Origin: a virus
Direction: 5' to 3' (one strand)
Virus record (IMG/VR): IMGVR_UViG_3300014656_000017
Location: 1-64,000 of that record
DNA: 64,000 nucleotides
Part shown: piece after piece, positions 40,991 to 63,133 of the stretch
Layout of the letters: every line of letters begins with the position of its first letter
How positions within the stretch are numbered: the stretch's first letter is position 1
Position numbers and translations under genes: made by a program
Notes under the pieces: generated by a model
What the model was told of the DNA's origin: nothing
What the model saw: only the letters and a program-made list of their open reading frames with translations
The model's database searches: none

Positions 40991-41824
40991 TTAACTTAAT
41001 AATCTTCCTGCATTTAATATTGCAACGGCAGTATGACTGTGAATTGATTCTTCATGATTAACAGTTATTACATAATCACTAATATGTTTATCTAACCATT
41101 TATCTAATTCATTTCCCAACTGCCGAACTACATCTTCAACAAACTTTGGATTCTCATACATTAATTCAGTTTGCCATTTTTCATCTTCTCTTTTTAAACC
41201 ATTAATAATAGGTGCAGATGCACATTTAATTATCATATCGTACAAATCTTCAATCCATACTATATCTGCTCCATCATTAATTTTTACTGTAATCTCTGCT
41301 GTGCTGCGCTGATTATGTGCTCCATGTTGTGAAATTTCTTTACTACACGGACAACATGAAGTATACGGAGCCCGAACGGTTATATACATAGAAACTTTAT
41401 CATTTTCCAATTTACCCTCTACAGCTGCATATAATTCAATATGCGATTTAATCTTGCTTACAGGGGCTTCTTGTACTAGATAATAAGGGAAATGTATTTT
41501 AATAAACGCATTTTCTTGTTTCAATTTCTTTTTAGTGGCATGTAAAAGTTCATGAACAAAATCATGTAATACCAAATCCTTATTGATTAGAAATTCTTCA
41601 ATAAGGATTCGGTATCTAGACATATTAGTTCCTTTTTCCCTTTTACTCAAGTCAGTATACATAGAAATATTAGCAGAACAAATATTAATTGTTCCATCTT
41701 TTCTTTGTACCTTTAACGGCACTTTAACTTCACGTATACCCACCTTTTTAATAGGTCTCTCAGGGAACCCAGTTGCTTGATTTTGAATATCTGGCAACTC
41801 ATGTCTATGTTTAATTTCGGGCAT
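40991..41824 (-). CDS. folE2: GTP cyclohydrolase IB (FolE2/MptA family)
   Basis: LPDIQ, I.KVGI, KGTNMSR, TS.CPCSKEIS..GAHNQRS, LKREDEK, NPKFVED.VR, ESIH.H.A. Confidence 0.93.
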   Translation of the reverse strand: MPEIKHRHELPDIQNQATGFPERPIKKVGIREVKVPLKVQRKDGTINICSANISMYTDLSKREKGTNMSRYRILIEEFLINKDLVLHDFVHELLHATKKKLKQENAFIKIHFPYYLVQEAPVSKIKSHIELYAAVEGKLENDKVSMYITVRAPYTSCCPCSKEISQHGAHNQRSTAEITVKINDGADIVWIEDLYDMIIKCASAPIINGLKREDEKWQTELMYENPKFVEDVVRQLGNELDKWLDKHISDYVITVNHEESIHSHTAVAILNAGRLLS

Positions 41825-41834
41825 ATTTTATTCC

Positions 41835-42764
41835 TTATAGATTTTCAATATCATCTAATAGTTCTTTTAATTTATCTGAATCAGCAGTTGTTGTTGATTC
41901 ACTTGGTTCGCCTTCAACTGGAACATTAATAGACGGCTCAATGGTTTCATCACCATCTGTAATAGCTACCGTATCCGTACTTTTAGGAGCTGTTAGTTTA
42001 TTGGTAGTTCCTGATTTCTTATTGCTAGATTCGGCAACAATTGTAAAATCTGAAAACAAATGTTCTTGTAGCAATTCCTTCATTTCATCTGCAGACTTAG
42101 GCTCAACAAACTTTGTTAGATCAAAAATACTATCATAAATAGTTTTAATCTTTTGTGGTGTTAGTCCTTCAATTGGTCCTGGTGCAGTAAATCTAGAATT
42201 ATTATAGTTAGCAAATTTTCGTGTACCTTCTACAGTGCTTTCTACCTTAATTTTAAAATTACAACCATTCTCTGTCAAATCAAATACTTTTGATCCGAAT
42301 TCATCTGCATCACCACCCTCAATAGCTTCTGTAATCTTTTCGTGTAATCTTTTACCAAAACGAAGTACTTTAACAGTTCCCTCATTTTCTGAATTAGTAG
42401 GATCTGAAATTACATATACGTTCACCATATGTTTTTCCATACGTCGAATATTATATGCAACTTTCTTATCGTCTTCGTTCTTTGTTTTATACAGTTTAAA
42501 TCTGTTTTCGCAAATGATACACCTTTCATCAAATGTGGTTGGGCAAAAACTATCTACATACTGTCCTGTAGATGTGCTGCTCCACCCATGGTGAAAATAG
42601 TGGAAAAATGTTGCTTTTGGATCTTTGACATTTGGAATCAATCGAACCAAATAAGTATTACCTGGCTCCATCTTCAAAATATCACGATATGCGGACGAAT
42701 TATGCTTTGGATTATCTAACGACTCTTTAATACTATCAAACATACTTGTAATGTCTATATTCAT
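41835..42764 (-). CDS. Single-stranded DNA-binding protein (gp32-like)
   Basis: VRLIP, H.W, CP....CIIC, NVYVISDP...NEG.VK...FGK, FDL..G.NF.IK, acidic tail. Confidence 0.88.
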   Translation of the reverse strand: MNIDITSMFDSIKESLDNPKHNSSAYRDILKMEPGNTYLVRLIPNVKDPKATFFHYFHHGWSSTSTGQYVDSFCPTTFDERCIICENRFKLYKTKNEDDKKVAYNIRRMEKHMVNVYVISDPTNSENEGTVKVLRFGKRLHEKITEAIEGGDADEFGSKVFDLTENGCNFKIKVESTVEGTRKFANYNNSRFTAPGPIEGLTPQKIKTIYDSIFDLTKFVEPKSADEMKELLQEHLFSDFTIVAESSNKKSGTTNKLTAPKSTDTVAITDGDETIEPSINVPVEGEPSESTTTADSDKLKELLDDIENL

Positions 42765-43439
42765 TTATTTATTTTCCTTTATTATACTTTCTATTTTTTT
42801 AATACCTTCTTTTACTAATATTTTTGCATTTTTTGAATTTATATATTTTGTTTTATATTTTACCCAATCATTCATCAAATCCCCCAAAAATAATTCCTTT
42901 TCATCCTCTGCGATTTTGATAATGATATCATATATTTCAGGGAATTCAACGAGTACATAAAAATTTATTTCATGTCTCTTTAATTGTTTCATCCATTCAT
43001 ATGTTATACCCGTCCTTGTATGTATATACTCTTTCACACTCAGTTTGTGCTTATAGCAAAACTCACCTATTACTTTTAACGATTGTTTAATCATTGTTAG
43101 CTGTTCGGGGGTATCTGGTGGTAGTTCCTGAAGATATTTCATATACATTGCAAACGCTTCAATTCCACCCATTCCCGCATAAAATTTTAAATCTACATAA
43201 TCTTCAGCGGGATGTAAAACAAAAGGGGCTTTAAAATATAACTCTGGATTAATGTGAGGATACTTGCTTAACATATTACTAATTCGTTTTATATTAAGCC
43301 TTTTATCATCTTCTAAATTATCAAAATCCTTGCGATAAGAAAACAATTTGTCGCGACTTTCTCGAGATACCCTTAAATATAAATTATACAATTGTTTTTC
43401 TTTAAAATTTAAATTGATTTTATTTGTGTTGTTGTCCAT
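42765..43439 (-). CDS. Hypothetical replication-region protein (possible helicase-loader analogue)
   Basis: 224 aa, basic and helical, upstream of gp32-like as gp59 is in T4; function from synteny only. Confidence 0.4.
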   Translation of the reverse strand: MDNNTNKINLNFKEKQLYNLYLRVSRESRDKLFSYRKDFDNLEDDKRLNIKRISNMLSKYPHINPELYFKAPFVLHPAEDYVDLKFYAGMGGIEAFAMYMKYLQELPPDTPEQLTMIKQSLKVIGEFCYKHKLSVKEYIHTRTGITYEWMKQLKRHEINFYVLVEFPEIYDIIIKIAEDEKELFLGDLMNDWVKYKTKYINSKNAKILVKEGIKKIESIIKENK

Positions 43440-43734
43440 TACTGTTTCTTTTAGTTAATGCTATAGTTACTATTTTTGATTTACATAATGTAGGATATCT
43501 TTCAATAAGATTATTAACAAGTTCTTGAAAATTGTCAATGTCTGCTAATTGTAGTGCACAGTTTCTAAATGTAATACTTTGAATTAATGCTATTAATAGT
43601 TTTGCTTGATTAGTTTTTTTATTTTGTAATATAGATAATAAGGATCCAAGTTTTAATACAATCATATCTAGTTCTCGTTCAGCTAAATATTCTGGAGGGG
43701 ATAAATTGGTTTCTTCAATGTACGTAGTTATCAT
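43420..43734 (-). CDS. Hypothetical protein
   Basis: 104 aa, coupled. Confidence 0.55.
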   Translation of the reverse strand: MITTYIEETNLSPPEYLAERELDMIVLKLGSLLSILQNKKTNQAKLLIALIQSITFRNCALQLADIDNFQELVNNLIERYPTLCKSKIVTIALTKRNSNGQQHK

Positions 43735-44633
43735 TTTATTTCTTTTAATAATTTAGTAAATTCTAAAAATTTGCCAGTGATCTGTCCGCCAGCTGAATAT
43801 TCATGTCCTGCACCATCTGCTAATTTTTCAGCTAATAAATTTAATTTACATGTTGATTTTTTATTTCTTCTAAAACTAATATGTTGTGTTGAAGTATTAA
43901 CTACTATGGCAATATCTGGATTATATGTAGATAAAATATGATCACTAATATCGTTTACAGGTGAAGATTTATTAACAAATGTTGCTATAATATGATACTT
44001 GGTCCCTGATATAGAAATTTCTTTGTTTTCAAAAAGCTTTATATTTGCAAGAGTTTTATCTAATTGTTGTTTCCATAATTTGTAGATATTTTCTTGTTGT
44101 GCAGTAAAAGCTGTCATGCCTTTATCATACATTTCCATAAATGCTTTAAAGTTATTATGAGTGCTCCAAAATATTGAATTTAATTTTTTTGATTCTGGTA
44201 CAGATAATGTATAAGAATCATAATCATTACCAAGTGCTATTAAAATCTTTTGATTTTTATTCAGTTCTAAATTATATAACTTTTTAAATATTTTATAAGC
44301 AAGCAGACAAGCAGAGGGATATTCTTTAACAATAACAGTAGCTGTTTCATATTTTGCATTATCTACATGAGACTTATGATGATCAATAATAAAAACATTC
44401 GATTTATCAATTAAATCTTTATGATCACTAACGTCTAAATCTAAAATGAATATTTTGTCATAGTCTTCTATTTTATGTTTTAGAAGCCATTTTGTAAAGT
44501 CTATTCTAAATCCAAAACCTGCAATGCTATCATATTCTATATGTGCTTGAGGATGAGCCCATTTAGTCACCAGAGCAGACACCACACCATCTAAATCATT
44601 ATGACTAAATATAAATATACGGGGTATTTTCAT
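43731..44633 (-). CDS. DHH/DHHA1 phosphoesterase
   Basis: HNDLDG, LDLD, IDHH, SA, DYD, SFR, GAGH..SAG. Confidence 0.9.
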   Translation of the reverse strand: MKIPRIFIFSHNDLDGVVSALVTKWAHPQAHIEYDSIAGFGFRIDFTKWLLKHKIEDYDKIFILDLDVSDHKDLIDKSNVFIIDHHKSHVDNAKYETATVIVKEYPSACLLAYKIFKKLYNLELNKNQKILIALGNDYDSYTLSVPESKKLNSIFWSTHNNFKAFMEMYDKGMTAFTAQQENIYKLWKQQLDKTLANIKLFENKEISISGTKYHIIATFVNKSSPVNDISDHILSTYNPDIAIVVNTSTQHISFRRNKKSTCKLNLLAEKLADGAGHEYSAGGQITGKFLEFTKLLKEIK

Positions 44634-44671
44634 CTAAAATATTTATTAGTAATATGTTAAAAAATCAACTG

Positions 44672-46024
44672 CTATTTAATATCCAATTTTCCCAATACAC
44701 TATCTAATTCGCCCACTTCTTCAGTAGAAGAAAAGACATCATCTGTTTCACTAATAGTAAGAGTATCATAATCTATTTTGAATGATTGTTTTCCGAAATT
44801 TGGTCCAAATCTACTTTTCATCATTCCAATATTTAAAATTCCCAATTCTTTTTCTGCAGGAGTGCACCATATAGACATCATAGCATCTGCAGTATGAGAA
44901 ATGCCCATACTTTCACCTGTTGATTTAATAGATGGCGATTCTATAGCACCATATCCACTTCTATTTAATTGGAATGCACTGATAATAGGACACGAAAATA
45001 CATAACTTAGTGCTCTTAATTTTTCTGAAATATCTTTACCGTCTTCATATAGTGATCCATCACCTTTAGTGGATTCTAATAAAGTTAAATAATCTATGAT
45101 AATTACATCTGGGCGAAATTTCTTTTTATTCTTTAATTTTTGAATGTATGCTTTAATATGATTAGTTGTAATAGAACTGGGCGGAAATTCTTTAATGATC
45201 AGCTTTGAAGACATATGTTTTTGTGTAAACTCTTTAACAAATCCTCTCAATAAATTTGTTTCTTCTTTAAGTCTGTTTGTTGGGATTTGTGATAATTGAG
45301 TACTGATTCTTTTAGAATATAACAATTCTGACATTTCTAATGATATGATTACTGCATTTAGATCCTGTTCTACTACCTTTCCTGCTGCATTAGCTAATAC
45401 AATAGACTTTCCTATGTTAGTCTCGCCACCAAATAAATATAATGCTCGGCCAGACTGCATCCAGCCTCCTCCAAGCATTTTATTTAACCACTTATATCCT
45501 GTTGGGATAAATTTGTCAACAGTTGTAAGATCTGTTAAATGTTTTTCAATATCTTCAAAATAATCGTGACCTAAATTGTCAACTAAACTTATATTGCATG
45601 CCTTTTCAAACGTTTCTAGTATTTCATTAGTATCAGGGATGGCCTCTTTGTCCGATACTTTATTAACAGTTTCTTTGACTGCATAATATACTGCTTTCTC
45701 TTTAATAAATTGTTCTGTGTTGCGTAAAAGTTCATCTTGATTATATTGTGTGTCTAATGTTTTAAAATGTATCACTACATCTTTGTAAGCTTTTTTAAGA
45801 TCATCATTTATTAATTTAGATTTAATTTCTGTAGCATTAGGTAGAGATGAATGTTCTTTATAAAAGTCAAATATTATTTGAATGTAAGATCGGATATTAT
45901 CGTTTTTAATATATAATGGTTTTAATTCATCAATAATATTAGCTACGTAAATATCATTTAATGTGACATTTAACGCTACAACATATTCAAAAAAATCAGT
46001 ATCTATTTTGCGAGGCTCAGACAT
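44672..46024 (-). CDS. Replicative DnaB-like helicase (gp41)
   Basis: GGETNIGKS, ISLEMSE, IKEFP, IIDYL, QLNRSG, ESMG..HTAD, KSRFG. Confidence 0.93.
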   Translation of the reverse strand: MSEPRKIDTDFFEYVVALNVTLNDIYVANIIDELKPLYIKNDNIRSYIQIIFDFYKEHSSLPNATEIKSKLINDDLKKAYKDVVIHFKTLDTQYNQDELLRNTEQFIKEKAVYYAVKETVNKVSDKEAIPDTNEILETFEKACNISLVDNLGHDYFEDIEKHLTDLTTVDKFIPTGYKWLNKMLGGGWMQSGRALYLFGGETNIGKSIVLANAAGKVVEQDLNAVIISLEMSELLYSKRISTQLSQIPTNRLKEETNLLRGFVKEFTQKHMSSKLIIKEFPPSSITTNHIKAYIQKLKNKKKFRPDVIIIDYLTLLESTKGDGSLYEDGKDISEKLRALSYVFSCPIISAFQLNRSGYGAIESPSIKSTGESMGISHTADAMMSIWCTPAEKELGILNIGMMKSRFGPNFGKQSFKIDYDTLTISETDDVFSSTEEVGELDSVLGKLDIK

Positions 46025-46636
46025 TTATGTAGTTTGTTTATTTAGATTTTCAATTGACTCTACAAGTTTCTGCTGCAACATTTCAATAATCGTATCTTCT
46101 TCTTTTATTCTAACATTATATTCAACTACATTTTTAATAATCTGATCAGCTCTTTCTTTAACAGATCCTGTTACTATAATTGGATTTATTCTATAAGATT
46201 CAATATAGTCGTCATATAATTGTACAATAGCATTTCGATAATCTTGATTCATACTTCGCGAATCATCATCTATTAAGTCAAATTCTGGTTTAATATAAAA
46301 GTGTAAATCATATCTAAGATTTTCAAAAATTGCTTCAGCTATCCGTAAGGTTTCTTGAGTTATTTTTTCTGTTTGATACTGGTGTGTTGCATACACTAAT
46401 GCATCTAAAGAACATCGATCTAATACAGAATTCCTCCATACATAATTTTTTAAATGAACAGCTTCTACCATTAACTGTGCATTATCATCCCCTACATCAT
46501 TAAGTTTAAATCCTAATTCTTGAATACCTCTAATACTTTCAACAAAGGTATAATCTTTCAATTCTGGTCTAGTTCGAAGTTCATTAATTAGTGAAGTTTT
46601 TCCCGTTCCTTGAGCGCCTGAAATAGCTATTCTCAT
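46025..46636 (-). CDS. P-loop nucleoside/nucleotide kinase (AAA_28/NadR-like)
   Basis: IAISGAQGTGKTSL, DRCSLD...Y, DD.SR, G...ER. Confidence 0.8.
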   Translation of the reverse strand: MRIAISGAQGTGKTSLINELRTRPELKDYTFVESIRGIQELGFKLNDVGDDNAQLMVEAVHLKNYVWRNSVLDRCSLDALVYATHQYQTEKITQETLRIAEAIFENLRYDLHFYIKPEFDLIDDDSRSMNQDYRNAIVQLYDDYIESYRINPIIVTGSVKERADQIIKNVVEYNVRIKEEDTIIEMLQQKLVESIENLNKQTT

Positions 46637-47433
46637 ATATTCTCCTTATTATTAAACATTTTACGAAATAATCGTACATTATGCACGGCAGTTTCTATTT
46701 GTTCTAAAGAAAATTGATGTTCAAATAGTTCTACCATTTTAGTTGGATCTTTATCAATCGTCAATGTTGGCCATGAGTATTTAATGCCTAATAATCCTTG
46801 CACTATGGGGTTAGACGTGTCGATCGTATCGAACTTGCGGTATATGTCAGACGTCATAAATTCATTTGGCAACGCTGTTCCAAGCGCATGGTGAGGCTTG
46901 GTAAATCTAAGAATCCCCAATTTCTCCATTTCTGTAAGAAAATAGTGGCGACCTGATGCATATTTTTGCCAAATATTATCACCCGTTCCGTGCACTAAAT
47001 AATAATCTTGAATAAAGTTAATAGCTATTTTGTCTGCTTTGCTGTGCATGAAATTATAACAGACTGTCAAATCTTCAAAATTCTTGCCTTGAACAACACC
47101 AATTTTCTTACCAGGCAGATTACCATAGTTTTCATTCCACTTTTTATAATTTTCAATAGTTTTTTCAGCATCACCAAATACATCAGGAACTATATATTCT
47201 GTTGGTTTTAATTCAAGAATTTTTAATGCAAATAAATCGGAATTAAATGCCTCACCTAATTCAAAGACACTATTATCCAAAATAACTCTACGCCCCATTT
47301 TTAATGAATCTTTAAAGAACTCTGAATATTTTGGATAGTCGTTTAGTAAATGCACCAAACAATAATCATAATCATTAAAGCTTCTAGAAATATCTAAAAG
47401 TTGTAATGGAACTTCGTGGGAGATTTGTGTCAC
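46633..47433 (-). CDS. TGT-fold transglycosylase-like protein (divergent DpdA candidate)
   Basis: ILDNS.FE, .VPD, GVVQG, HHALG, IDTS map onto the TGT/DpdA motifs DSG.F, PD, VQG, H.LG, DS. Confidence 0.6.
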   Translation of the reverse strand: MTQISHEVPLQLLDISRSFNDYDYCLVHLLNDYPKYSEFFKDSLKMGRRVILDNSVFELGEAFNSDLFALKILELKPTEYIVPDVFGDAEKTIENYKKWNENYGNLPGKKIGVVQGKNFEDLTVCYNFMHSKADKIAINFIQDYYLVHGTGDNIWQKYASGRHYFLTEMEKLGILRFTKPHHALGTALPNEFMTSDIYRKFDTIDTSNPIVQGLLGIKYSWPTLTIDKDPTKMVELFEHQFSLEQIETAVHNVRLFRKMFNNKENI

Positions 47434-48539
47434 TTTTCTTCCTTTATATTATCTACTTCTTTTTTAATTTCTTCAACAGAACTACTAAACACAAACTCTT
47501 TCTTTAATACTTCTTCAAGTTTAGGTATAATAATATTATCCCATACATTTGCATCTTTTTCAAATGCTTTTCTATATCCTAAAGTATTACCATTACATTC
47601 ATAAGTTCTATCGCCTGTAATAACGCCTAGTCCATGAGCCAATTCAAACAACCCAGAGTATTTATCTACCCCTGTTTTAAAATTAAGGTAAATGTCTGTT
47701 GCTAGCATAGGTGGTAAAAATCTATTTTTAGCTGTAAGTGCATGCATTGTTATTCCGCCTACTTTCTTAGCTGCTGATAATATTTCTTCAGATTCAAATT
47801 CCTTTTCGTTCTTTTCTCGTTTAAATCCTAATTGAATAATTAGTGAAGAAAGATAAATTGGCGCTTTTCCTCCAGATTGATTTTTAATTGCAGACGGATA
47901 CATAGCAGCCGGATCATCATATTCATGGTTAGAAAATAGAATAGTGGTTTTAGCCTTAGCAGCTCTATAGGTTAAGGTTCTTAACATGCTTTTAATTTCT
48001 TTAGCTCTCAATCCCATATCTGCTGCTGATTTGTCTTCTTCAGCATCTTTAATTTCTTTACCACTGGCCAAATTACCCAAAGAATCTATAATAATCATAA
48101 ACTTCTTTTGCAGATTCTTTTCAAGGATTTTATTAAGAACCGCTAAAATTTGATTACGGGCACTATTTACAGTATTCACCGGATAGTGCTTAATTTGATC
48201 AGGATTGGCTCCTAAAGATCGTGCTGTAGCCGCATCTAATGCTACTTCTGAATCGAATACAATACCCCATCTTGTCGGATCTTCTTTTTGAAAGTTTCCT
48301 AATATCTTAGTCATAATCAAAGTTTTACCACAACCAGAAGGTCCTGATAATCCAATAATTCTTCCTTGTTGAATTCCTTTGAAACAGGAACCTGAAACAA
48401 TTGCATTCAGGGCATACGATCCTGTGTCCACCCAAGCATCTACAACAGACAATGCATTGTCTGATAAAATTGTGGCATCAGGATTCAGAGCATCCGCATC
48501 TTTAAACACATCATCATATATATTAGTCTTTTTAGCCAT
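47430..48539 (-). CDS. uvsX: RecA-like recombinase
   Basis: DTGSYALNA..SG, GPSGCGKT, FDSE, IIDSLGNL, DMG.RA, SGG. Confidence 0.93.
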   Translation of the reverse strand: MAKKTNIYDDVFKDADALNPDATILSDNALSVVDAWVDTGSYALNAIVSGSCFKGIQQGRIIGLSGPSGCGKTLIMTKILGNFQKEDPTRWGIVFDSEVALDAATARSLGANPDQIKHYPVNTVNSARNQILAVLNKILEKNLQKKFMIIIDSLGNLASGKEIKDAEEDKSAADMGLRAKEIKSMLRTLTYRAAKAKTTILFSNHEYDDPAAMYPSAIKNQSGGKAPIYLSSLIIQLGFKREKNEKEFESEEILSAAKKVGGITMHALTAKNRFLPPMLATDIYLNFKTGVDKYSGLFELAHGLGVITGDRTYECNGNTLGYRKAFEKDANVWDNIIIPKLEEVLKKEFVFSSSVEEIKKEVDNIKEEK

Positions 48540-49088: not shown

Positions 49089-52000
49089 TCAAACTTTAAA
49101 AAATTCGAACAAATCACACGTATATTCGTTTTTAAAATCAATCAATCTCCATCCAATACTAATAAATCTACTTTCTATTGCTCTAACTATATGCTTTTCA
49201 AACATCTTGTCATAATCAGGCTTAATAACAGATTCAAATTCTTTTGGAAATTTATCAGCGAATGCAATATTCTCAAATCCATACTTATTAGGCATTACAT
49301 ATATCCATTTAATTTTATTTCCAGAGCCAATAAAATCATATACGTTTTCTAATTTTAATGCTTTAATTAAATTGTTATGATTGATAGCTCCTTTAACATG
49401 CACTGGAGTTCCTTTAGCGTGTACTAATCCATTCATTCTGTTGTTATATTTATCAAACCCATTTATATTAGATCGTGATGCAATATCTTCATATGAAAGT
49501 TTTTTAAATTCTTCAAAAATTTGTTTATATACTTCTATTGTTTGTTCACGACTCTTAGTATAAATTATAGTTTCAACTACCTTTTTAATAAGATTTTTGC
49601 ACTCTTTTGAAATAGTGCTTTTAGCTACCTCTACTCCTACATATTTAATTTTATCAGTTGGAAGCGGAGTATCACCTTTACTCTTGTCTTTAATATGCAA
49701 AATGTAATATTTCTTTGCTTCATAAATGCCAGCTGAACATATATATTCTCTTTTAAATACAAATTGAGGATTTAAAGAATTGATAGCATTTTTAGCCCAT
49801 TCAATAATTTGTGTATTTAATACATTATTTAATTTTTTAACAATGTTGAAACTCTGTCTGCTTACTTCTCCTGTTTCGTCTAAAAGAGGAATTTTTAATT
49901 TCTTTAGAATAGGCTCTAAAGTTAGCACTGTGCTGTCCGTGTCATTATAAAATGTTATATTAGAATCTATACCGTATTCTGTTTTTGCAAAATTATCTAA
50001 AATATCATTAGCTGCTTTAATTGTTGCTTGTCCTGTTAAAGTAATACTACCAGAATGATCAATATCTGCTAAGGGAGCATATCTGTTAGCAAAACATCCA
50101 TACAAACTATTTAATATAGTCTTTAAAGTGTTTTGAATAATATCTAATCTGCCTAAAGCGGCAATGTTTTCATTGTATTTATCTGAACCCTTTTTTGTGT
50201 GAGATTGAGAATGATTAATTTTGTCTATCTCTTCCACACTCTTAACTCGTTCATCATAAAGGGATTGTACGAATTCTGGAACTATACCCAGTGTCTTTTG
50301 TGTATATAATACTTTAGCTTTAGATATAGATATTTTTTCTTTTTCTATGAAAGTTTTAAAGTTGTCTTTTGTAAGTGTGTGCATTTTTCCATTTACTAAT
50401 TTTAATTCAACTTCTGTATCAGACATAGATAAAATTTTACCTATTTTTGTCTCTGGTGAAATGTTCAAAGATATAATAGTATTAGGATATAGACTATTAG
50501 CATCGAATACAACAATACTTTCATATAATCCGGGCGTGATATCTCTAACAAATCCGCCGGCATAGGATCCCATTTCTTCATGCTTAAAGGTAGGTATAAT
50601 TTTATTATGTTTTAATGCCTGTTGTGCAATAGCTCCTGTTACTACTGTTACTTTACCTAGAGCAGATTCTAATGCAGCTAATCCTTTATAAGATATTGTT
50701 CTCATTAATTGAAGAAAACGAAGCTTTTGTTCTAATTTTACCAATAGCTCAACATCCCTAACATTATATTCGACAAATTTGTCCCAATTAGTATCAGCTA
50801 ATTTTGTAAGACTTGTAGCACTTACATTAACTTTACCTTCGCCTAATTCTAATTCACTAATATAATCCAAACTATAAGACTCTCTATCTCCTCTTGAAAA
50901 TGTTTTATATGCTTTCCAATAGTCAATACAGCTTATGCCGCCAATATACCACCGGCCTATTTCTTTACCAAATTGTTTTTCTACATTTTCGCGATATCTT
51001 ACTTGGCCTACCGGAGACAATTTATACACCCAATCTTCACCAATAACATTTTCAATTCTATTAATTATATAGGGTATATCAAAGCGTTCGCAATTGTGGG
51101 TCTTGATACCATTACAAATAAAATAATGTGTTTGTGTTTCTATGTCACACATTTCTACATTTTTGCCGGTTTTTTGTATATTTTTAATTTTAACCAACAT
51201 TCCGTTCTCGATTTTAAACCACTTAATTTTATTAGATATTATATTTTTTTTAATGTAATATTTTATATTTTTGAGTTTATTTTTTCTGTCTTGGTGCCAA
51301 ATATTTAAATCAGATATAAATTTTTTATTTTCATTAATAAAAGGAATCCCTGTATTATGCTTTGTTACAGAGGATATAACACCATTCCATAATAATAGTT
51401 GTTGCAAAATATTAATATTTGGAATATCATAACATTTATCATAATTACATACATTTAATTGTGTATCCGCAACATTACCATCACCGTCAATTAAACCGGA
51501 GTAAAATTCAATAAATTGATCATAAGACAACATTGAAATCATCGATATGTTTAATTGTTTTTTGTTTTCTGTATTATATATTAATGGCAATAATACTCCA
51601 AACTTGTTATTGCAAGATACTCTTTTATAAAAATTGTTATCACTTTGTTGTAATCTTGATAAAACTTTAATATTGGAGGGGCAATTTGTATCAATATTGT
51701 TATATATGGACGAATATTTTTCTACTAAATATTGGTGTTGGCTGCTGTACTGATTGGTAAAGGTTTTAAAATCAACACATCCATCTGTAAATGTATATCC
51801 TAAGAATCTTAATATATCACTAGATATAACTTCGTCTAAATTTATGTTTATAAATTTTTGTGTTAACAATATTGTTAATACTGTTTCGTTTTTTAAATAT
51901 TCTAATATCATATCATCAGATATATATTTTTGAAGATTTTTATAATCCCATCCCTTTCTTTTCCAAAATATCTTTCCCTGCCAATATTCTGTTGGTATAT

Positions 52001-53033
52001 TTATTGAATTTTTATATTGTTTTAAATGGTCTCTAATTTGAACGGATTTAATTTTAAAATTAAATCTGGTATAATTTTTTAAGCTGGTCCAGTTATCAAT
52101 AATATAGTTTCTATAATTTAATTGTTTGTTATTATTATCTCTAATAGGTATAAATACATATGAATCTTTGTTTTGTGTATTTATGTCTTTTACTTTAGTA
52201 TCTGTTAGAGTGGATAATAATGTATTTGAATTTTTGTATGCATTTTTGTTTTTAGAACATATCGGAAATATGTGTTCCTTCGAACATAAAATGCTGTGTC
52301 CTAATTCTGTTGTAAGGTTGTATTCTTCTTTAATTCCTGTATCTATATAATTATTTATATTATTTTGGAATTTTTCTGATGTAAAAAGGGGTATATTTTC
52401 ACATTTTTTTGATAAATTTACTATTTTATTAGTGCCCCATAAATATTGGTTTTTGGTGAGACAATACCATCCAGAAACTATATCAGGATAATCCTCTCGC
52501 CAAAATTTAACAAAAGCTCTTAACATTTCAGCTTCTGTTTGAAATTCATAATATTTGTGATCTGAAGCTAAAGATAAGTGTCGATGAGCTAGACCAAACG
52601 TATGATATATTTTAGATAAAGAATCGTATACCGTAATTAAGTTGATTGGATGCGCAGCCTTTTCAGGTTCAGGAAATTCAACAGAGTATGTTTCAATATC
52701 TAGAAAGAAAGTTTTAAGTGGATGTTTAGTAAATTCAGCAGAAGCATTTAATCCATTAAATTTGTCAATTAAATATTGATGTTCTGCTTTAAGATTATAA
52801 AATATTCGTTGAGTTCCGCAACTTTCAACATATCTACGCCTATCAAATTGACTCGGAAATGTTATTTTTCTTAAAGGAGTATTATAAATAGAAACAGCAT
52901 CTTTTTGTGTATTGCTTTCAATATAAATATAGGGATGATAATCCTCAATTTGTTCTATTCTATTGCCGCTTTCATCCCATGTCCACAAATGCATTTTTTG
53001 TGTTTTGGGATTATAAGAAATATTTCTATACAT
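49089..53033 (-). CDS. Family B DNA polymerase (gp43-like) with intein
   Basis: LDIET (ExoI), FDIPY (ExoII), YN..DV (ExoIII), DANSLYP, K..LNSLYG, NDTDS, KKYY; start corrected to MYRNI after AAGGAG. Confidence 0.95.
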   Translation of the reverse strand: MYRNISYNPKTQKMHLWTWDESGNRIEQIEDYHPYIYIESNTQKDAVSIYNTPLRKITFPSQFDRRRYVESCGTQRIFYNLKAEHQYLIDKFNGLNASAEFTKHPLKTFFLDIETYSVEFPEPEKAAHPINLITVYDSLSKIYHTFGLAHRHLSLASDHKYYEFQTEAEMLRAFVKFWREDYPDIVSGWYCLTKNQYLWGTNKIVNLSKKCENIPLFTSEKFQNNINNYIDTGIKEEYNLTTELGHSILCSKEHIFPICSKNKNAYKNSNTLLSTLTDTKVKDINTQNKDSYVFIPIRDNNNKQLNYRNYIIDNWTSLKNYTRFNFKIKSVQIRDHLKQYKNSINIPTEYWQGKIFWKRKGWDYKNLQKYISDDMILEYLKNETVLTILLTQKFININLDEVISSDILRFLGYTFTDGCVDFKTFTNQYSSQHQYLVEKYSSIYNNIDTNCPSNIKVLSRLQQSDNNFYKRVSCNNKFGVLLPLIYNTENKKQLNISMISMLSYDQFIEFYSGLIDGDGNVADTQLNVCNYDKCYDIPNINILQQLLLWNGVISSVTKHNTGIPFINENKKFISDLNIWHQDRKNKLKNIKYYIKKNIISNKIKWFKIENGMLVKIKNIQKTGKNVEMCDIETQTHYFICNGIKTHNCERFDIPYIINRIENVIGEDWVYKLSPVGQVRYRENVEKQFGKEIGRWYIGGISCIDYWKAYKTFSRGDRESYSLDYISELELGEGKVNVSATSLTKLADTNWDKFVEYNVRDVELLVKLEQKLRFLQLMRTISYKGLAALESALGKVTVVTGAIAQQALKHNKIIPTFKHEEMGSYAGGFVRDITPGLYESIVVFDANSLYPNTIISLNISPETKIGKILSMSDTEVELKLVNGKMHTLTKDNFKTFIEKEKISISKAKVLYTQKTLGIVPEFVQSLYDERVKSVEEIDKINHSQSHTKKGSDKYNENIAALGRLDIIQNTLKTILNSLYGCFANRYAPLADIDHSGSITLTGQATIKAANDILDNFAKTEYGIDSNITFYNDTDSTVLTLEPILKKLKIPLLDETGEVSRQSFNIVKKLNNVLNTQIIEWAKNAINSLNPQFVFKREYICSAGIYEAKKYYILHIKDKSKGDTPLPTDKIKYVGVEVAKSTISKECKNLIKKVVETIIYTKSREQTIEVYKQIFEEFKKLSYEDIASRSNINGFDKYNNRMNGLVHAKGTPVHVKGAINHNNLIKALKLENVYDFIGSGNKIKWIYVMPNKYGFENIAFADKFPKEFESVIKPDYDKMFEKHIVRAIESRFISIGWRLIDFKNEYTCDLFEFFKV
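51093..52463 (-). mobile_element. Cis intein with LAGLIDADG endonuclease (457 aa) in the PolB ExoII motif
   Basis: GWY|CLTKNQ...CSKEHIF...LGYTFTDG...SGLIDGDG...MCDIET...NGIKTHN|CERFDIPY. Confidence 0.92.
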
Positions 53034-53052
53034 ACTAGCTCCTTTATTGACC

Positions 53053-53073
53053 GTGCGTGTTAAAGATGCGCAC
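53053..53073 (-). promoter_or_regulatory. Hairpin in the polymerase mRNA leader (candidate translational operator)
   Basis: GUGCG-11nt-CGCAC stem just upstream of the SD, downstream of TTGATT-N16-TATAAT (53090-53117). Confidence 0.45.
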
Positions 53074-53119
53074 ACCCTTATTTTAATTAATTATATAAAA
53101 TGCTATATAGAAATCAAGT

Positions 53120-57183: not shown

Positions 57184-57777
57184 TTAGACATATTCAAGCT
57201 CGCAATTGTTTCTAAACTCTTGAAGATTCATTGCATTTACATAACTAAACGCTGATTTTAATCCATGCTCTATCTCACGCAAGATATACTTAGCATGTCC
57301 TTTAAACGGAACCTTCAACATCTCACCCTCTACAAACTCATTCTTTAACCCTGAAGATACTTTATTTTCCATACTAGCTGAACCACCATACATCTTATAG
57401 TATCTTCTATCTACTAAATTAGTTCCTGGTTCTGGATATACATTTCCTGGAGTTTCTGTAGTACCTGCTAGTACAGCACCTACCATAACAGCATCTGCAT
57501 ACTTTAATGCTTTAGCAACATCACCAGAACTTGTAATACCTCCATCAGATATCATTTTAATGGGAAGCCCTTGTCTAACAATTTCATCATAACAAGAATG
57601 TAAGGCTCCTAATTGTGGATGGCCTACACCCGTACGTTGAGTTGTAACACAAACAGAATTATGAACAACCATTCCTTCTGCAATATATGAATGGGGGTCT
57701 CCAACCTCTAGGTCATAAACAGGCCCAGAGTATTTATATTTTTTAATATTAGTAATAGGAACAAGATTAAATTTCAT
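57184..57777 (-). CDS. IMPDH/GMP reductase C-terminal fragment, starting with a 40-aa split-intein C-half (57658-57777)
   Basis: MKFNLV...VYDLEV...HSY...VVHN|SVCVT...G.PQ, SDGGI..SGD..KAL, VMVG, E.PG, YGGSAS, VEG; ATG overlaps the endonuclease stop. Confidence 0.92.
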   Translation of the reverse strand: MKFNLVPITNIKKYKYSGPVYDLEVGDPHSYIAEGMVVHNSVCVTTQRTGVGHPQLGALHSCYDEIVRQGLPIKMISDGGITSSGDVAKALKYADAVMVGAVLAGTTETPGNVYPEPGTNLVDRRYYKMYGGSASMENKVSSGLKNEFVEGEMLKVPFKGHAKYILREIEHGLKSAFSYVNAMNLQEFRNNCELEYV

Positions 57778-58928
57778 TTCGCCTCCAAAAAATCTATGCA
57801 TTTCTTAATAATTATATCTTTATTTTTCTTATAGTCAAGTGAAAGAATTCTTAAACATTTAGCGCCAGGCAGCTCCTTTTTAATATTTGTCTCTCTAATT
57901 TTATCTTTTTGTACATCATGCCATTTTGGATCATCATACTCTACCCATTTGTTAAGATCTTTAATATAAAAATCTAATCTATAATACTTCCCGTTTTTCA
58001 GCTCTACTAAAAACTCATTATTTATATGATCGTTTCGTATACCATTATCATTGGTTGCAAAATATATATTTTTATATTTGTGTGATATATTTTTATAAAT
58101 TTCCCAAAAAATCTCTTGTGATATATTAGACCATCCATGAGTTTTTAGTTTTTTAAGTATTTGTTTATTTTTATATCTATAATCTTTCCACCTTTTTGTT
58201 CCATTTATTTTTCCATAAATTCTTATGAATTTTTCTAATGTTTGTGCTTTAGATTTTTTATATTGATTGTATATTTCTGTGCCTTTATGTATACCATATT
58301 TTTCAATATATTTTTCAATAGTATGTTTATTTTTAAGACGATTTTTATATTCTTTTACTTTTATATTTGCTTCCTCTATTGATAATCCTTTCTTAATCCA
58401 ATATTCCGGCAAAAAACAACTCACATATTTGTCAGGATACATTTTTTTATATATTCCGAATTTCAAGCCTGCATTTCTTGAGTTGTCACTTAAAATTTTT
58501 TGTGCTTCGTCTGATGTGTGTCCTCTTTTAATCCAGTATTCTGGACATCTACAACTTCCCGTTCGATACTTTTTCTTATTATTTGTATACCATTTGCGTA
58601 TTTTTGATCCTGCCTCCGCAAGAAACTGGCTTCTTTTATTTTCAATTTCTTCGCCTGTATACCCCTTATCAATCCAATATTCTTTACAATTCTTTAAACA
58701 TTTTCGGTGAATGCAATAATTGCAGTATTTTTTATATCCCAACACTCCATTAATATATTCTGTTGATTTATTACATACCTTACACACACCTTCGTTGGCT
58801 TTTTTAAAATGTGTATCGTAATAGTCCTTAATCTGTTTTTTGTTGAATTTGTGTTTATTAGATAAATGCTTACTGAAATTATACAAATTGCTGCTTTGTT
58901 TTTGACATAAAATACATATAGGTTGCAT
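57774..58928 (-). mobile_element. Free-standing homing endonuclease (Vsr-like/EDxHD type) with Zn fingers and repeats
   Basis: C2H2 (CILC...HLSNKH), CxxC pairs, 3x EYWI.KG, 2x KYG...G; C-terminal S.ISQ...NEF...LDFY...VEYD..WH...D..R. Confidence 0.8.
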
Positions 58929-58956
58929 ACTTATCCGCCTTCTATATATATTTATG

Positions 58957-59847
58957 CTAATTTGCTAATTTTTCTTGAGATTCTATCAAAAAATAATCAG
59001 TTGTTAATTGATCTGCAGGAACCCATTTGGCAAAAAGATGGATATTATCATCTGTAATTTTATTAACATCATTTTTATGAACAACATATATTTTATGATC
59101 ATTAGTGCACTTTAATGAATTGTTAATTTCAACCACTTCTTTACTATTATCAAATTTAAATGTTGTTGTAACTTCTTCGTATTTACCTGTATGAGTTAAT
59201 ACTATTTCACCTGGTTTAATGTCCTGTATTTTTCTTTGTCCTGTAGATGTTGTAATTTTTGTATCAGGTAAAAAACACCCACCCGCTATGCCAACTTTTG
59301 CTACATCAGCACCCCATTCATTTAAATCATAAACAGCTTCCGGTGTACAAACATTACCTGCAATTAAGCATATTTTAGACCTCTCTGATCGAGACCATTT
59401 AAACAATTCGCTTGTAATCCATAGTAACATTTTTTTTGTATGTTCATGATGACCATGAGCTACATCAATACAAAAGATTCGAGCACCAGCGCAATATAAT
59501 TCTGCAAACCTTTCTTTATCTTCTGCTTGTACACCAAGAGAAACACCAATGAGAGGTATATTATAATCATTATCAGGGGTTGTTACCCATCTATAATCAT
59601 CTCTTGCTTGTTGTATAGTATCAAATCTGTGTAAAATACCTAACCCACCAGCGTCCCACATTGTAGTTGCCATTTTAGGACCTGTAATATTTTTCATATT
59701 AGCAGAAATTACAGGAAGTTTTAAAATTACATTATTATGGATCTTGCTGGAAATGTCTACATCATTGCGACTAGCAATAGTGCTATAAACTGGTTTAATA
59801 ACTACATCACTAAAATGCTCTGAGTATTTATTGTTGTTCATATCCAC
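58957..59847 (-). CDS. IMPDH/GMP reductase N-terminal fragment, ending in a 106-aa split-intein N-half (58960-59277)
   Basis: F.DV...P, SR, PVISANM, GGLGILHR, IDVAHGH, IAGNV.T, KVGIAGG|CFLPDT...CTNDHKIY. Confidence 0.92.
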   Translation of the reverse strand: MDMNNNKYSEHFSDVVIKPVYSTIASRNDVDISSKIHNNVILKLPVISANMKNITGPKMATTMWDAGGLGILHRFDTIQQARDDYRWVTTPDNDYNIPLIGVSLGVQAEDKERFAELYCAGARIFCIDVAHGHHEHTKKMLLWITSELFKWSRSERSKICLIAGNVCTPEAVYDLNEWGADVAKVGIAGGCFLPDTKITTSTGQRKIQDIKPGEIVLTHTGKYEEVTTTFKFDNSKEVVEINNSLKCTNDHKIYVVHKNDVNKITDDNIHLFAKWVPADQLTTDYFLIESQEKLAN

Positions 59848-60243: not shown

Positions 60244-62160
60244 TTATTTAACAGGGCATACACCACTAGCACATTCGATTCCTTCAATATCCTCACCTGA
60301 AGATTTTATAATATGAATAGGCTGGAGTTTAGAGGTAAGCTCGGTATATTCTTCTTTAGTAATTTCTTGTAAAACAGGTTGCGCAAATCCATGATCACTA
60401 TGAAGCAAAAAACTAACTGATTTAATACTATTATCGTAATTATGTTTTAGCCATTCTTTTATTCCTGTTAGCTCTTCTTTTTTATAATACACAGTTACGC
60501 TAATAGAATTATCTGACCAAATAGTTTGAAGATTTTTAACCATCTCAAGCTGTTGAATAGCAGACATATCTTTTGCTAAAATGGTTTGTTCAGAAGACTC
60601 ACAAGGAAAAGAAACTACACAAGTATTATGATCATATGAACCATCAAAATTTAAAACGAATTCAATAGGATATCCTAAACTACGACAATATGCAACTAAT
60701 GGATCAGTAGCACCAATTCTCACTCTACGAATATAGTGTTGACTATAAGCAGGATGAATCCCAGGAGTGGAACCACTTAATAATGAAAGAGTTCCGCTTG
60801 GCTTACATGTAGAAAGCTTAATACTTTCATTCCATCCTCTTTCTTTACTCCATTGTTTATCAAATTTTCTAAGCTCTTTATAACATTCATCCAACCATTC
60901 TAATTTATCTATTGATTGACATATACCGGTCACTCCCAATCCTAATCTCATATTCTTATGTACTACTTTAGTTGTTTCCTCATGAATAAAGTTCATTGAA
61001 GCAACAGCTTTCTGTGTTTTATATAAAAGTTTAGCACAGGTAATAAGTTCTTCTTTTGAGGTAATATTGTTCAAATATAATTCCGCAAGATTACAACATT
61101 CTTTATCTGATAGAAAAATTTCAACGCACGGATTTGCGCCATCAACAGGATCTTTACATGGTTCACCTAAACGACCCATTTTTTGTGCTAATGGCAGATT
61201 AATAAAACCATAAGGCTCACCCTGTCCATTATACCCATCCCATACATCTCTCATAATGTGTGAATATTCATCTGCATAGATGGTATTATTAGACATAGCT
61301 CGCCAATTTGGAATATTGCCTAAATCCCATCGTTTAGCTCTAAGGAATAGATAATCATCTGGATCGCCAAGAGCAACCTCAGCACTTCTCCTCACATTGC
61401 CCGATACCACAAGCATTCCAATGATATTACAAATGTCTAAAACATCTATAGAACGTAACTTCTTTCCTTCTCTGCTTCTAAGAACATTTACAATTTTATC
61501 CATATTTTCAACAAGCAATTTCGGTCCACTTGCTTGACCACCAAAACTTCTAATATCTTCACCTTGACCTCTAACTAAGATAGTAGAATACGTAAATGAT
61601 TTTCCTTTAATAAAATATGCTTTTAAAATTTGTCTAAGCAATAAAATAAAACCTTCGCGGGAATCGGGTACAATAAAATTAGCATCTTTAGTTAATTCGT
61701 GTTTAATAAAAACATCTCTTTTAACTCTTGGCAATTCGTGAATATCTTCTGATTTTACAGAAAATCCAACACCGCCACCTAACATTAAATTCTCAAAAAG
61801 AAAACAGAAATCATCAATATTACGAATAGAAGTAAACCAGCAATTTAATAAACTGTTACCGCCAAACTTACGAACTACATTTGTACCTAACTGCCACAAC
61901 ATCCGCCCGGCATAATTACACTTTAAATTGAACATTAAATCATAAAGTTGTTCTGCTTCTTCTTTAGTGTAACCCGCTCCTATTTCTTGAGCGCCTTCAA
62001 TACTCCGCGCAATAGTTTCCCACCATTCTTCTGAAGTATCATCTTCTTTTTTACGCGCATAGGTTCTTTTGAAAACAATATACCCTAATCCGTTAAACCC
62101 CCAATTGGGTTGTTTGTTTTTATATTTGCTGAGAAAGTCTGGTGAAAAAGATTTAAACAT
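60244..62160 (-). CDS. nrdJ: Class II (adenosylcobalamin) ribonucleotide reductase, monomeric type
   Basis: RTYAR, GRMLWQLG, LNCW, GGGVG, GNVRRSA, NPCVE, CNLAE, KPSGT.S, C-terminal CASGVCP; start corrected to MFKSF. Confidence 0.92.
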   Translation of the reverse strand: MFKSFSPDFLSKYKNKQPNWGFNGLGYIVFKRTYARKKEDDTSEEWWETIARSIEGAQEIGAGYTKEEAEQLYDLMFNLKCNYAGRMLWQLGTNVVRKFGGNSLLNCWFTSIRNIDDFCFLFENLMLGGGVGFSVKSEDIHELPRVKRDVFIKHELTKDANFIVPDSREGFILLLRQILKAYFIKGKSFTYSTILVRGQGEDIRSFGGQASGPKLLVENMDKIVNVLRSREGKKLRSIDVLDICNIIGMLVVSGNVRRSAEVALGDPDDYLFLRAKRWDLGNIPNWRAMSNNTIYADEYSHIMRDVWDGYNGQGEPYGFINLPLAQKMGRLGEPCKDPVDGANPCVEIFLSDKECCNLAELYLNNITSKEELITCAKLLYKTQKAVASMNFIHEETTKVVHKNMRLGLGVTGICQSIDKLEWLDECYKELRKFDKQWSKERGWNESIKLSTCKPSGTLSLLSGSTPGIHPAYSQHYIRRVRIGATDPLVAYCRSLGYPIEFVLNFDGSYDHNTCVVSFPCESSEQTILAKDMSAIQQLEMVKNLQTIWSDNSISVTVYYKKEELTGIKEWLKHNYDNSIKSVSFLLHSDHGFAQPVLQEITKEEYTELTSKLQPIHIIKSSGEDIEGIECASGVCPVK

Positions 62161-63133
62161 TATTTTTAACTTGCTCCTCAATCCATTTATATGTTGGTTC
62201 AATGCCTCTTACTAGTGGCCATTGTGATTTCCATCCTGTTGAATATATTTTGTTGTTACTAAAATTGCGAGATTGTACACCTACTGGACCATCTATATGA
62301 TTAATGATTATATCTTTATTTGCAATTTTTGCAATAGTGTATGCTAGTTCATCTACAGAAACATATTCAGGATTGCCTATGTTAGTAGGACCTTTTAAAT
62401 CAGAATGCATTAATCTGTAAATACCTTCAACCATATCTTCTACGTAAGTATATGATCTTACGGCAGTTCCATCACCCCAAACATCTATAGTTCCTTTATT
62501 ACCTTTTATTTCCGCAATTTTTCGACATAGTGCAGCTGGAGCCTTTTCTCTTCCACCTTTCCATGTTCCATACGGCCCATAACAATTTTGAAAACGTGCA
62601 ATACGTACAGAAATATTATATTTTCTTCCGTATGCTTCTACAACACGTTCTGAATATAATTTCTCGAAACCGTACTCATTATGAGGCATTGCTGGATAGG
62701 CTTGTACTTCATTCATTTCAGGTTCTCCTATTTTCATGTCACGGTATACACAAACAGAAGAAGAATAAAAATACCTTCCAGGTACTCCAGGTACTCCATA
62801 GTTTGCTGTACAAGCAGCATGTATCATATTAACATTAATAAGAACATTGTTTCGCATGATATCTGTTTCTGCGCTGTGAATGAATCCCATTCCGCCCATG
62901 TCAGCTGCTAAAGAATATATTTCATCATAAGGTTTCCAAAAAGGATTTAACATAGCCAAATCACAATTTTGTGGAATTCTTAAATCTAATAGTTTAAATT
63001 CGTCACAAGAAAGAGATCGATATTCTGGATTCTTAATATCTACACCTCGAACCCAATATCCTTGTTTTTTAAGATACTCTACCAAATGCCCGGCAATGAA
63101 ACCGCCGGCGCCAGTTACTAGTGCTGTTTTCAT
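62153..63133 (-). CDS. NAD-dependent nucleotide-sugar epimerase (GDP-mannose 3,5-epimerase-like)
   Basis: VTGAGGFIA, LAADMGGMGFI, YG.EK, GGREKAPAALCRK, WGDG...RS. Confidence 0.9.
   Translation of the reverse strand: MKTALVTGAGGFIAGHLVEYLKKQGYWVRGVDIKNPEYRSLSCDEFKLLDLRIPQNCDLAMLNPFWKPYDEIYSLAADMGGMGFIHSAETDIMRNNVLINVNMIHAACTANYGVPGVPGRYFYSSSVCVYRDMKIGEPEMNEVQAYPAMPHNEYGFEKLYSERVVEAYGRKYNISVRIARFQNCYGPYGTWKGGREKAPAALCRKIAEIKGNKGTIDVWGDGTAVRSYTYVEDMVEGIYRLMHSDLKGPTNIGNPEYVSVDELAYTIAKIANKDIIINHIDGPVGVQSRNFSNNKIYSTGWKSQWPLVRGIEPTYKWIEEQVKNNV

Follow-up and report, generated by a model that had tools for sequence, protein, structure and literature searches.

We analysed a 64,000-nucleotide stretch of viral DNA, here called the window, which is the first 64 kb of the 110,908-bp IMG/VR virus contig IMGVR_UViG_3300014656_000017 (CheckV completeness about 49%), and found that its source, an uncultured T4-like phage, very probably encodes a 7-deazaguanine DNA-replacement system of the DpdA3 type with genes spread over the contig. 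This assignment draws on sequence comparison and on structural models. An earlier reading of the window from its letters (the sequence-only reading) had proposed a 7-deazaguanine DNA-modification system around a protein with the fold of the tRNA-guanine transglycosylases (TGT); that proposal holds, and the protein can now be placed in the named DpdA3 subfamily. The DpdA3 system as such is already known (Cui, Hutinet et al. 2023), and what is new here is a system that is fed by FolE2, has dispersed genes, and carries QueC without QueF. The genes in question are listed below; the three open reading frames (ORFs) in the window all lie on the minus strand, where the sequence-only reading had placed them.

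40991-41824, minus strand: FolE2 (GTP cyclohydrolase IB), 277 aa; PF02649 at 3e-71 and NCBIfam NF010200
46025-46636, minus strand: P-loop kinase of the AAA_28 family, 203 aa, between DpdA3 and dnaB, its start overlapping the DpdA3 stop (ATGA)
46633-47433, minus strand: predicted DpdA3-family 7-deazaguanine transglycosylase, 266 aa, from tblastn, AlphaFold, Foldseek, VIA-align, alignment and phrog_19058 (1e-58)
contig 89931-90500, outside the window, strand n/a: QueD
contig 90704-91447, outside the window, strand n/a: QueE
contig 99701-100510, outside the window, strand n/a: QueC, NCBIfam 127 bits against a trusted cut-off of 150

In the system that we propose, FolE2 would open GTP, QueD and QueE would make 7-carboxy-7-deazaguanine, and QueC would convert this compound to preQ0 or stop at the amide ADG. 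DpdA3 would then swap guanine for the 7-deazaguanine base by the double displacement of TGT, in which C1' would be attacked by one aspartate as nucleophile while another served as the acid/base. The end product would be virion DNA with a 7-deazaguanine in place of most or all of the guanine (G), which would block restriction enzymes, an extent of replacement that we infer from the phages CP220, phiST and immuto.

DpdA3 and its partner kinase

As judged by tblastn, the protein encoded at 46633-47433 is 44% identical to gp056 of Campylobacter phage CP220 (8e-53), 41% identical to the protein annotated DpdA in Flavobacterium phage immuto (7e-55) and 26% identical to CGPG_00065 of phiST (3e-4), the last of which is matched by a DpdA3 family hidden Markov model (HMM) at 4e-20. 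The DpdA3 subfamily was founded on these three proteins (Cui, Hutinet et al. 2023), and on sequence and model we assign the ORF to this published subfamily, with a confidently predicted TGT fold and a predicted exchange activity. More than 2,500 metagenomic relatives were found, all of them without a Pfam domain, the nearest (P0002 and P0003) being about 60% identical. Even with E values of up to 10 allowed, the TGT family PF01702 gave no match in the window protein or in 37 relatives, seven of which matched weakly to DUF6610, the DpdA4 family. A DpdA3 profile search of PDB sequences returned no TGT, and the relationship surfaced only by fold search.

The AlphaFold model, built on the 37 relatives, reached a pLDDT of 94.7, and the top 50 Foldseek matches in the PDB were all tRNA-guanine transglycosylases, with a probability of 1.0. 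With VIA-align we obtained Z scores of 17.3 for archaeosine TGT, 17.0 for the DNA preQ0 insertase DpdA of Salmonella Montevideo (7ui4; 234 residues aligned; PMC10164549) and 15.8 for bacterial TGT, against a background of 14.7 for pdxJ and at most 13.3 for other unrelated TIM barrels. The TGT fold that had been read from the letters is thus borne out by structure comparison with both TGT and DpdA.

The predicted structure is a minimal TIM barrel without a zinc motif, in which the conserved motifs are LDNSxFEL (D53, F57), PDV (D84), IGVVQG, HHLLG and DTSNP (D205). D53, D84 and D205 are invariant in the 37-sequence alignment, and F57 stands four residues past D53. In bacterial DpdA the corresponding functions have been assigned to Asp95 (acid/base), Phe99, Asp130 (base-reading) and Asp256 (nucleophile), which are invariant across TGT and DpdA (PMC10164549). 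Mapped by motifs and spacing, D53/F57, D84 and D205 of the predicted DpdA3 match Asp95/Phe99, Asp130 and Asp256, so that by sequence the three catalytic aspartates and the base-stacking phenylalanine are conserved. DpdA3 thus has in common with TGT (PF01702) the fold, the double-displacement residues and the LDNSxF, GxxQG and DxxxP-type motifs, but it differs in being without the Pfam match, the CxCxxC...H zinc site and the C-terminal tRNA-binding parts. That zinc site, which would follow the nucleophile aspartate, was not found in the 37-sequence alignment; only about 60 residues lie beyond D205, with no conserved cysteine or histidine cluster among them, and C125 is the sole invariant cysteine. 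At 266 aa, against 413 aa for bacterial DpdA, the protein has no room for the 128-residue insertion that follows the nucleophile in the bacterial enzyme, and DpdA1 is also longer (317 aa).

Among five matches to longer DpdA3 relatives, three carry unrelated or no recognisable domains, and in the other two, the metagenome proteins P0121 (531 aa) and P0122 (568 aa), DpdA3 is naturally fused to a two-domain QueF, an arrangement which suggests that free base from QueF is passed directly to DpdA3. An argument from charge was dropped: DpdA3 proteins are acidic (median pI 5.6, net -7), but so is the DNA-acting DpdA1 of phage 9g (pI 5.64, net -8).

The ORF that overlaps DpdA3 matched Pfam AAA_28 at 64 bits (cut-off 27; 2e-17) and phrog_2107, 'thymidylate kinase'. 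Its AlphaFold model (pLDDT 94.8) was matched by Foldseek, at a probability of 1.0, to deoxyadenosine kinase (dAK), thymidylate kinase (TMPK), the ribosylnicotinamide-kinase domain of NadR, and deoxycytidine kinase (dCK), and the invariant residues of the family are G7, G12 and K13 of the P-loop, D73-R74 of the DR motif and the lid arginine R127. As modelled, the protein is of the nucleoside/nucleotide kinase kind (deoxynucleoside kinase/TMPK/AAA_28), with a fold that fits nucleoside and nucleoside monophosphate (NMP) acceptors alike; the sequence-only reading had called it a P-loop protein resembling NMP kinases between uvsX and the helicase, and it does lie there. A second paralog of this kinase is encoded on the plus strand at contig 91672-92361 (L010:7672-8361), outside the window and directly after QueD and QueE (25% identity; family HMM 1e-25), and as a speculation the two kinases could perform two successive phosphorylations.

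The pairing of the two genes was followed through 82 DpdA3 loci (80 from IMG/VR, plus CP220 and immuto) by a six-frame domain scan. The kinase was present in 79 of the 82, always downstream and on the same strand, and two of the three misses were at contig ends, giving 79 of 80 informative loci. Conversely, loci seeded with the kinase had DpdA3 just upstream in 76 of 80 cases, the other four being cut off upstream (76 of 76 informative). At 70% identity the 79 paired loci make up 22 clusters; the pairwise identities of DpdA3 and kinase correlate with r = 0.89. In CP220, immuto and phiST, too, a kinase-like gene adjoins DpdA3, annotated 'thymidylate kinase' in the first two and left unannotated as CGPG_00066 in phiST. 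More distant DpdA3 genes also stand beside a kinase or small P-loop gene, as in CC_R7 (1.8e-26) and Bacillus phage BSTP12 (4.6e-5), and weak matches were given by the DpdA3-adjacent gene of MA9V-3 and by CGPG_00066. By these sequence counts the pairing is far above chance; it is near-obligate in the DpdA3 subclade of the window and recurrent elsewhere, not family-wide, and the kinase is a functional partner of DpdA3 rather than a chance neighbour.

The sequence-only reading had drawn the coupling from the ATGA overlap between the two genes. The overlap is real and the pairing is conserved, but the overlap itself carries little information: the junctions as read from the sequence are a GTGA overlap for uvsX/DpdA3, an ATGA overlap for DpdA3/kinase and TAAATG for kinase/dnaB, and since the operon is packed tightly at all of them, the DpdA3-kinase junction says little when taken alone. 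Co-occurrence across phages, which that reading had proposed as a check, holds in the subclade and not across a distant DpdA3 clade. No fusion of DpdA3 with the kinase was found among longer DpdA3 relatives, longer kinase relatives or about 150 loci, a blank that is weak evidence, and a prediction of the DpdA3-kinase complex from separate alignments gave no answer (score 0.00). We found no paper that explains the role of the kinase beside DpdA3, and the word 'kinase' occurs in neither the 2023 DpdA3 paper (Cui, Hutinet et al.) nor the 2019 paper of the same group.

FolE2 and the base-synthesis pathway

FolE2 scored above the curated cut-offs of both of its families (PF02649, 240 bits against 25; NF010200, 237 bits against 215), and its start lies 10 nt past gp32, which agrees with the earlier placement of FolE2 directly after that gene; the same gp32-FolE2 arrangement recurs in the related loci L051, L080 and L181. 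No other GTP cyclohydrolase I was found on the contig, whose 110.9 kb gave no match to FolE (PF01227). The sequence-only reading had singled FolE2 out as an unusual starter, and the counts agree: among the 82 DpdA3-related loci FolE was present in 22 and FolE2 in two, and a FolE2 match was given by only 3 of 50,697 deposited phage records. FolE2 is mentioned in neither the 2023 nor the 2019 paper. As a smaller point, a phage has here exchanged the first enzyme of the pathway for a non-orthologous one, and this may have made the pathway independent of zinc supply.

The same reading had noted that QueD, QueE and QueC were not in the window, which is correct, and had regarded the pathway as incomplete, which did not stand once the remaining contig had been searched. 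By sequence match, FolE2, QueD, QueE and QueC make the base pathway complete on one contig. QueF, DpdN and DpdL were not found on the contig, which represents about 49% of the genome, and because neither QueF nor DpdN was found, the base is predicted to be preQ0 or ADG. When QueC was compared with phage QueC by tblastn, only generic matches of 27-36% were obtained, and these did not separate preQ0 from ADG types. A DUF366 protein is encoded at contig 101297-101899, about 800 bp downstream of QueC.

The window phage resembles CP220, immuto and phiST in its transglycosylase subfamily and in co-encoding a base pathway from GTP, and departs from all three in several respects. It has FolE2 instead of FolE, its genes are split over three places, within and beyond the replisome operon, instead of forming one cluster, and its gene set, with QueC present and QueF, DpdN and DpdL not found, is outside the three that have been characterised. 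In close relatives DpdN and QueF directly follow DpdA3 and the kinase, whereas the window phage does not have them there. The metagenome locus L181 has the architecture of the window, with DpdA3-kinase, UvsX, DnaB, DHH, gp32 and FolE2 and without QueF. The DpdA1 systems of Enterobacteria phage 9g and Escherichia phage CAjan have in common with the window phage QueD, QueE, QueC and a TGT-like DpdA, but their GTP step is carried out by FolE and their replacement is partial (25-32%).

Substrate of the base exchange

Several points weigh against the system as we have set it out. No DpdA3 has been shown to be active, the attempts of its discoverers having failed (Cui, Hutinet et al. 2023), and the modified virion DNA is a prediction from the genes. 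QueC stays under its trusted cut-off, so that its product may be either the nitrile or the amide; moreover, QueF, DpdN or other tailoring genes may sit in the missing half of the genome and would change the predicted base. A second, metagenome scan, which reached more divergent DpdA3 proteins and covered 10-kb neighbourhoods, found the kinase in 13 of 30 informative loci and none in the other 17, and the 12 loci in which DpdA3 is less than 40% identical to that of the window all lacked a kinase within the 10 kb. Finally, the same kinase family is present without DpdA3 in Streptomyces phages.

The clade without a kinase (L191, L192, L193, L197, L199, L204, L205, L207 and L216-L218) is 35-38% identical to the window DpdA3. 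In most members DpdA3 is immediately preceded by a conserved ORF of some 170 aa that lacks a P-loop, and most also have a QueD, QueE, FolE or MazG-like gene downstream, with QueC in some. In Streptomyces phage LukeCage (gp95-gp96, L092:6210-7621) the kinase (HMM 1e-32) overlaps a 263-aa 'methyltransferase' by 4 bp, and a MazG-like gene is nearby; a hidden DpdA3 in this 'methyltransferase' was ruled out by hhalign (probability 0.1%), and the pair may constitute a distinct module for modification at the nucleotide level.

The substrate of the exchange we infer. DNA after replication, which is the published proposal, has in our judgement about an even chance; a free deoxyguanosine nucleotide or nucleoside before replication is a tentative alternative that deserves to be taken seriously, and some other route is improbable. 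The published argument is that DpdA is found in every such phage and that insertion is therefore post-replicative (Cui, Hutinet et al. 2023). We found no later paper on the pre- or post-replicative question for DpdA3.

If the exchange preceded replication, which we hold possible and somewhat doubtful, DpdA3 would exchange the base on the free deoxyguanosine nucleoside or nucleotide, the coupled kinase would phosphorylate the product, host NDP kinase would make the triphosphate, and the family B polymerase (PolB) would incorporate it; the paralog next to QueE perhaps also phosphorylates the product. DpdA3 would on this account be a deoxyribosyl-transferase-like enzyme rather than a DNA transglycosylase, its kinase committing the product to the deoxynucleoside triphosphate (dNTP) pool, and the G-free DNA would be built during replication. 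The extent of replacement speaks for it: all three tested DpdA3 phages (CP220, phiST and immuto) had 100% of their G replaced, and phages with DpdA1, DpdA2 or DpdA4 had at most 30% (Cui, Hutinet et al. 2023), while bacterial DpdA modifies less than 0.1% of G (PMC10164549). Complete replacement is thus found only with DpdA3. To our knowledge, every fully replaced phage base of known pathway (hydroxymethylcytosine, hmC; hydroxymethyluracil, hmU; deoxyuridine, dU; 2-aminoadenine) is made before replication, which favours the same account.

The partner gene points the same way, having a small-molecule kinase fold with best matches to deoxynucleoside and thymidylate kinases, near-obligate linkage to DpdA3 in the subclade of the window, and a second paralog directly after QueE; phage 9g, whose DpdA1 gives 25% replacement, has no member of this kinase family in its first 50 kb, a stretch that includes the modification cluster. 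Further in favour are the stripped-down barrel of DpdA3, with its short tail beyond the nucleophile, and Cap10, which shows that the TGT fold is able to take a substrate other than nucleic acid. Genes resembling dNTP hydrolases adjoin DpdA3 in phiST (MazG-like), immuto (NTP pyrophosphohydrolase) and CP220 (an HD domain fused to a P-loop). In CP220-infected cells free dADG nucleoside has been reported (Cui, Hutinet et al. 2023), and the route originally proposed for the Campylobacter phages led through a modified dGTP, as the 2019 paper of the same group noted.

Against exchange before replication stand the 12 kinase-less loci, the absence of a DpdA3-kinase fusion from the relatives and loci searched, and the fact that fold alone does not tell whether the kinase acceptor is a nucleoside, a nucleotide or something else. 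In contrast to CP220, immuto and phiST, the window phage gave no match to the dGTP-clearing HD, MazG and MazG-like families in 110.9 kb, about half the genome, which is weak evidence but leaves the exclusion of dGTP in this phage unexplained. We also know of no TGT-family enzyme that acts on a mononucleotide. Were the exchange pre-replicative, DpdA3 would be the first TGT-fold enzyme known to do so, and an intracellular route to 7-deaza-dGTP analogues would interest makers of restriction-proof or nanopore-distinct DNA.

A variant of exchange after replication, in which DNA is the substrate of DpdA3 and the P-loop protein takes the place of the ATP-dependent help given by the ParB-like DpdB, appears to us quite unlikely. 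It has a precedent in bacterial DpdA, which requires the ATPase activity of DpdB for the insertion of preQ0 into DNA (PMC10164549), and a co-inherited P-loop partner would fit it and could explain why DpdA3 was inactive in E. coli when expressed without such a partner (Cui, Hutinet et al. 2023). However, the partner, which is the sole conserved neighbour, has the fold of a nucleoside/nucleotide kinase and not a ParB-like or helicase-like one, and it keeps the DR motif and the lid arginine, which are typical of phosphotransfer to a small acceptor.

That the genes serve no DNA system at all and instead raise the host supply of queuosine (Q) or folate or modify tRNA, the kinase being an ordinary phage dNMP kinase, is very unlikely: raising Q in host tRNA was once proposed as the role of preQ0-pathway genes in phages without DpdA (2019 paper of the DpdA3 group), and FolE2 is common to folate synthesis, but the nearest characterised DpdA3 homologues come from phages with fully modified DNA, DpdA is described as a signature of DNA modification (Cui, Hutinet et al. 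2023), and linkage to DpdA3 in every one of the 76 informative kinase-seeded loci would not be expected of an ordinary dNMP kinase.

Operon context and other genes of the contig

The window has a G+C content of about 31% and a T4-like gene content that includes gp32, UvsX, a DnaB-type helicase, an intein-bearing family B polymerase, a Rad50-like protein and a class II ribonucleotide reductase. The genes around FolE2, the kinase and the predicted DpdA3 are the following.

41835-42764, minus strand: gp32 single-stranded DNA-binding protein, PF08804; context, outside the modification pathway
42765-43439 and 43420-43734, minus strand: two conserved unknown ORFs; context, outside the modification pathway
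43731-44633, minus strand: DHH/DHHA1 phosphoesterase (Pfam/PHROG), between the helicase and the two conserved unknown ORFs; context
44672-46024, minus strand: DnaB-like helicase (Pfam/PHROG); context, outside the modification pathway
47430-48539, minus strand: UvsX/RecA-like recombinase, PF00154 and phrog_97; context

The block UvsX-DnaB-(DHH)-u104-u224-gp32 was found again in related phage contigs. The DHH phosphoesterase occupies the same place in L181, but the other relatives examined lack it.

The family B DNA polymerase (window 49089-53075, minus strand, 1,328 aa) carries its intein between the exonuclease and polymerase domains. Another split gene, at window 57184-59847 on the minus strand, belongs to the IMP dehydrogenase (IMPDH)/GMP reductase family and consists of two halves with intein ends and a 384-aa ORF between them. 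Against GMP reductase the halves align in one piece, whereas an alignment to IMP dehydrogenase leaves out the CBS region; once rejoined they would therefore have, judging from the alignment, a GMP-reductase-like architecture, and a guanine-nucleotide enzyme may be relevant in a phage that is predicted to purge G from its DNA. An NAD-dependent sugar epimerase/dehydratase is encoded at window 62153-63133, and contig 65404-66723, 72704-73768 and 73775-74827 are three radical SAM genes.

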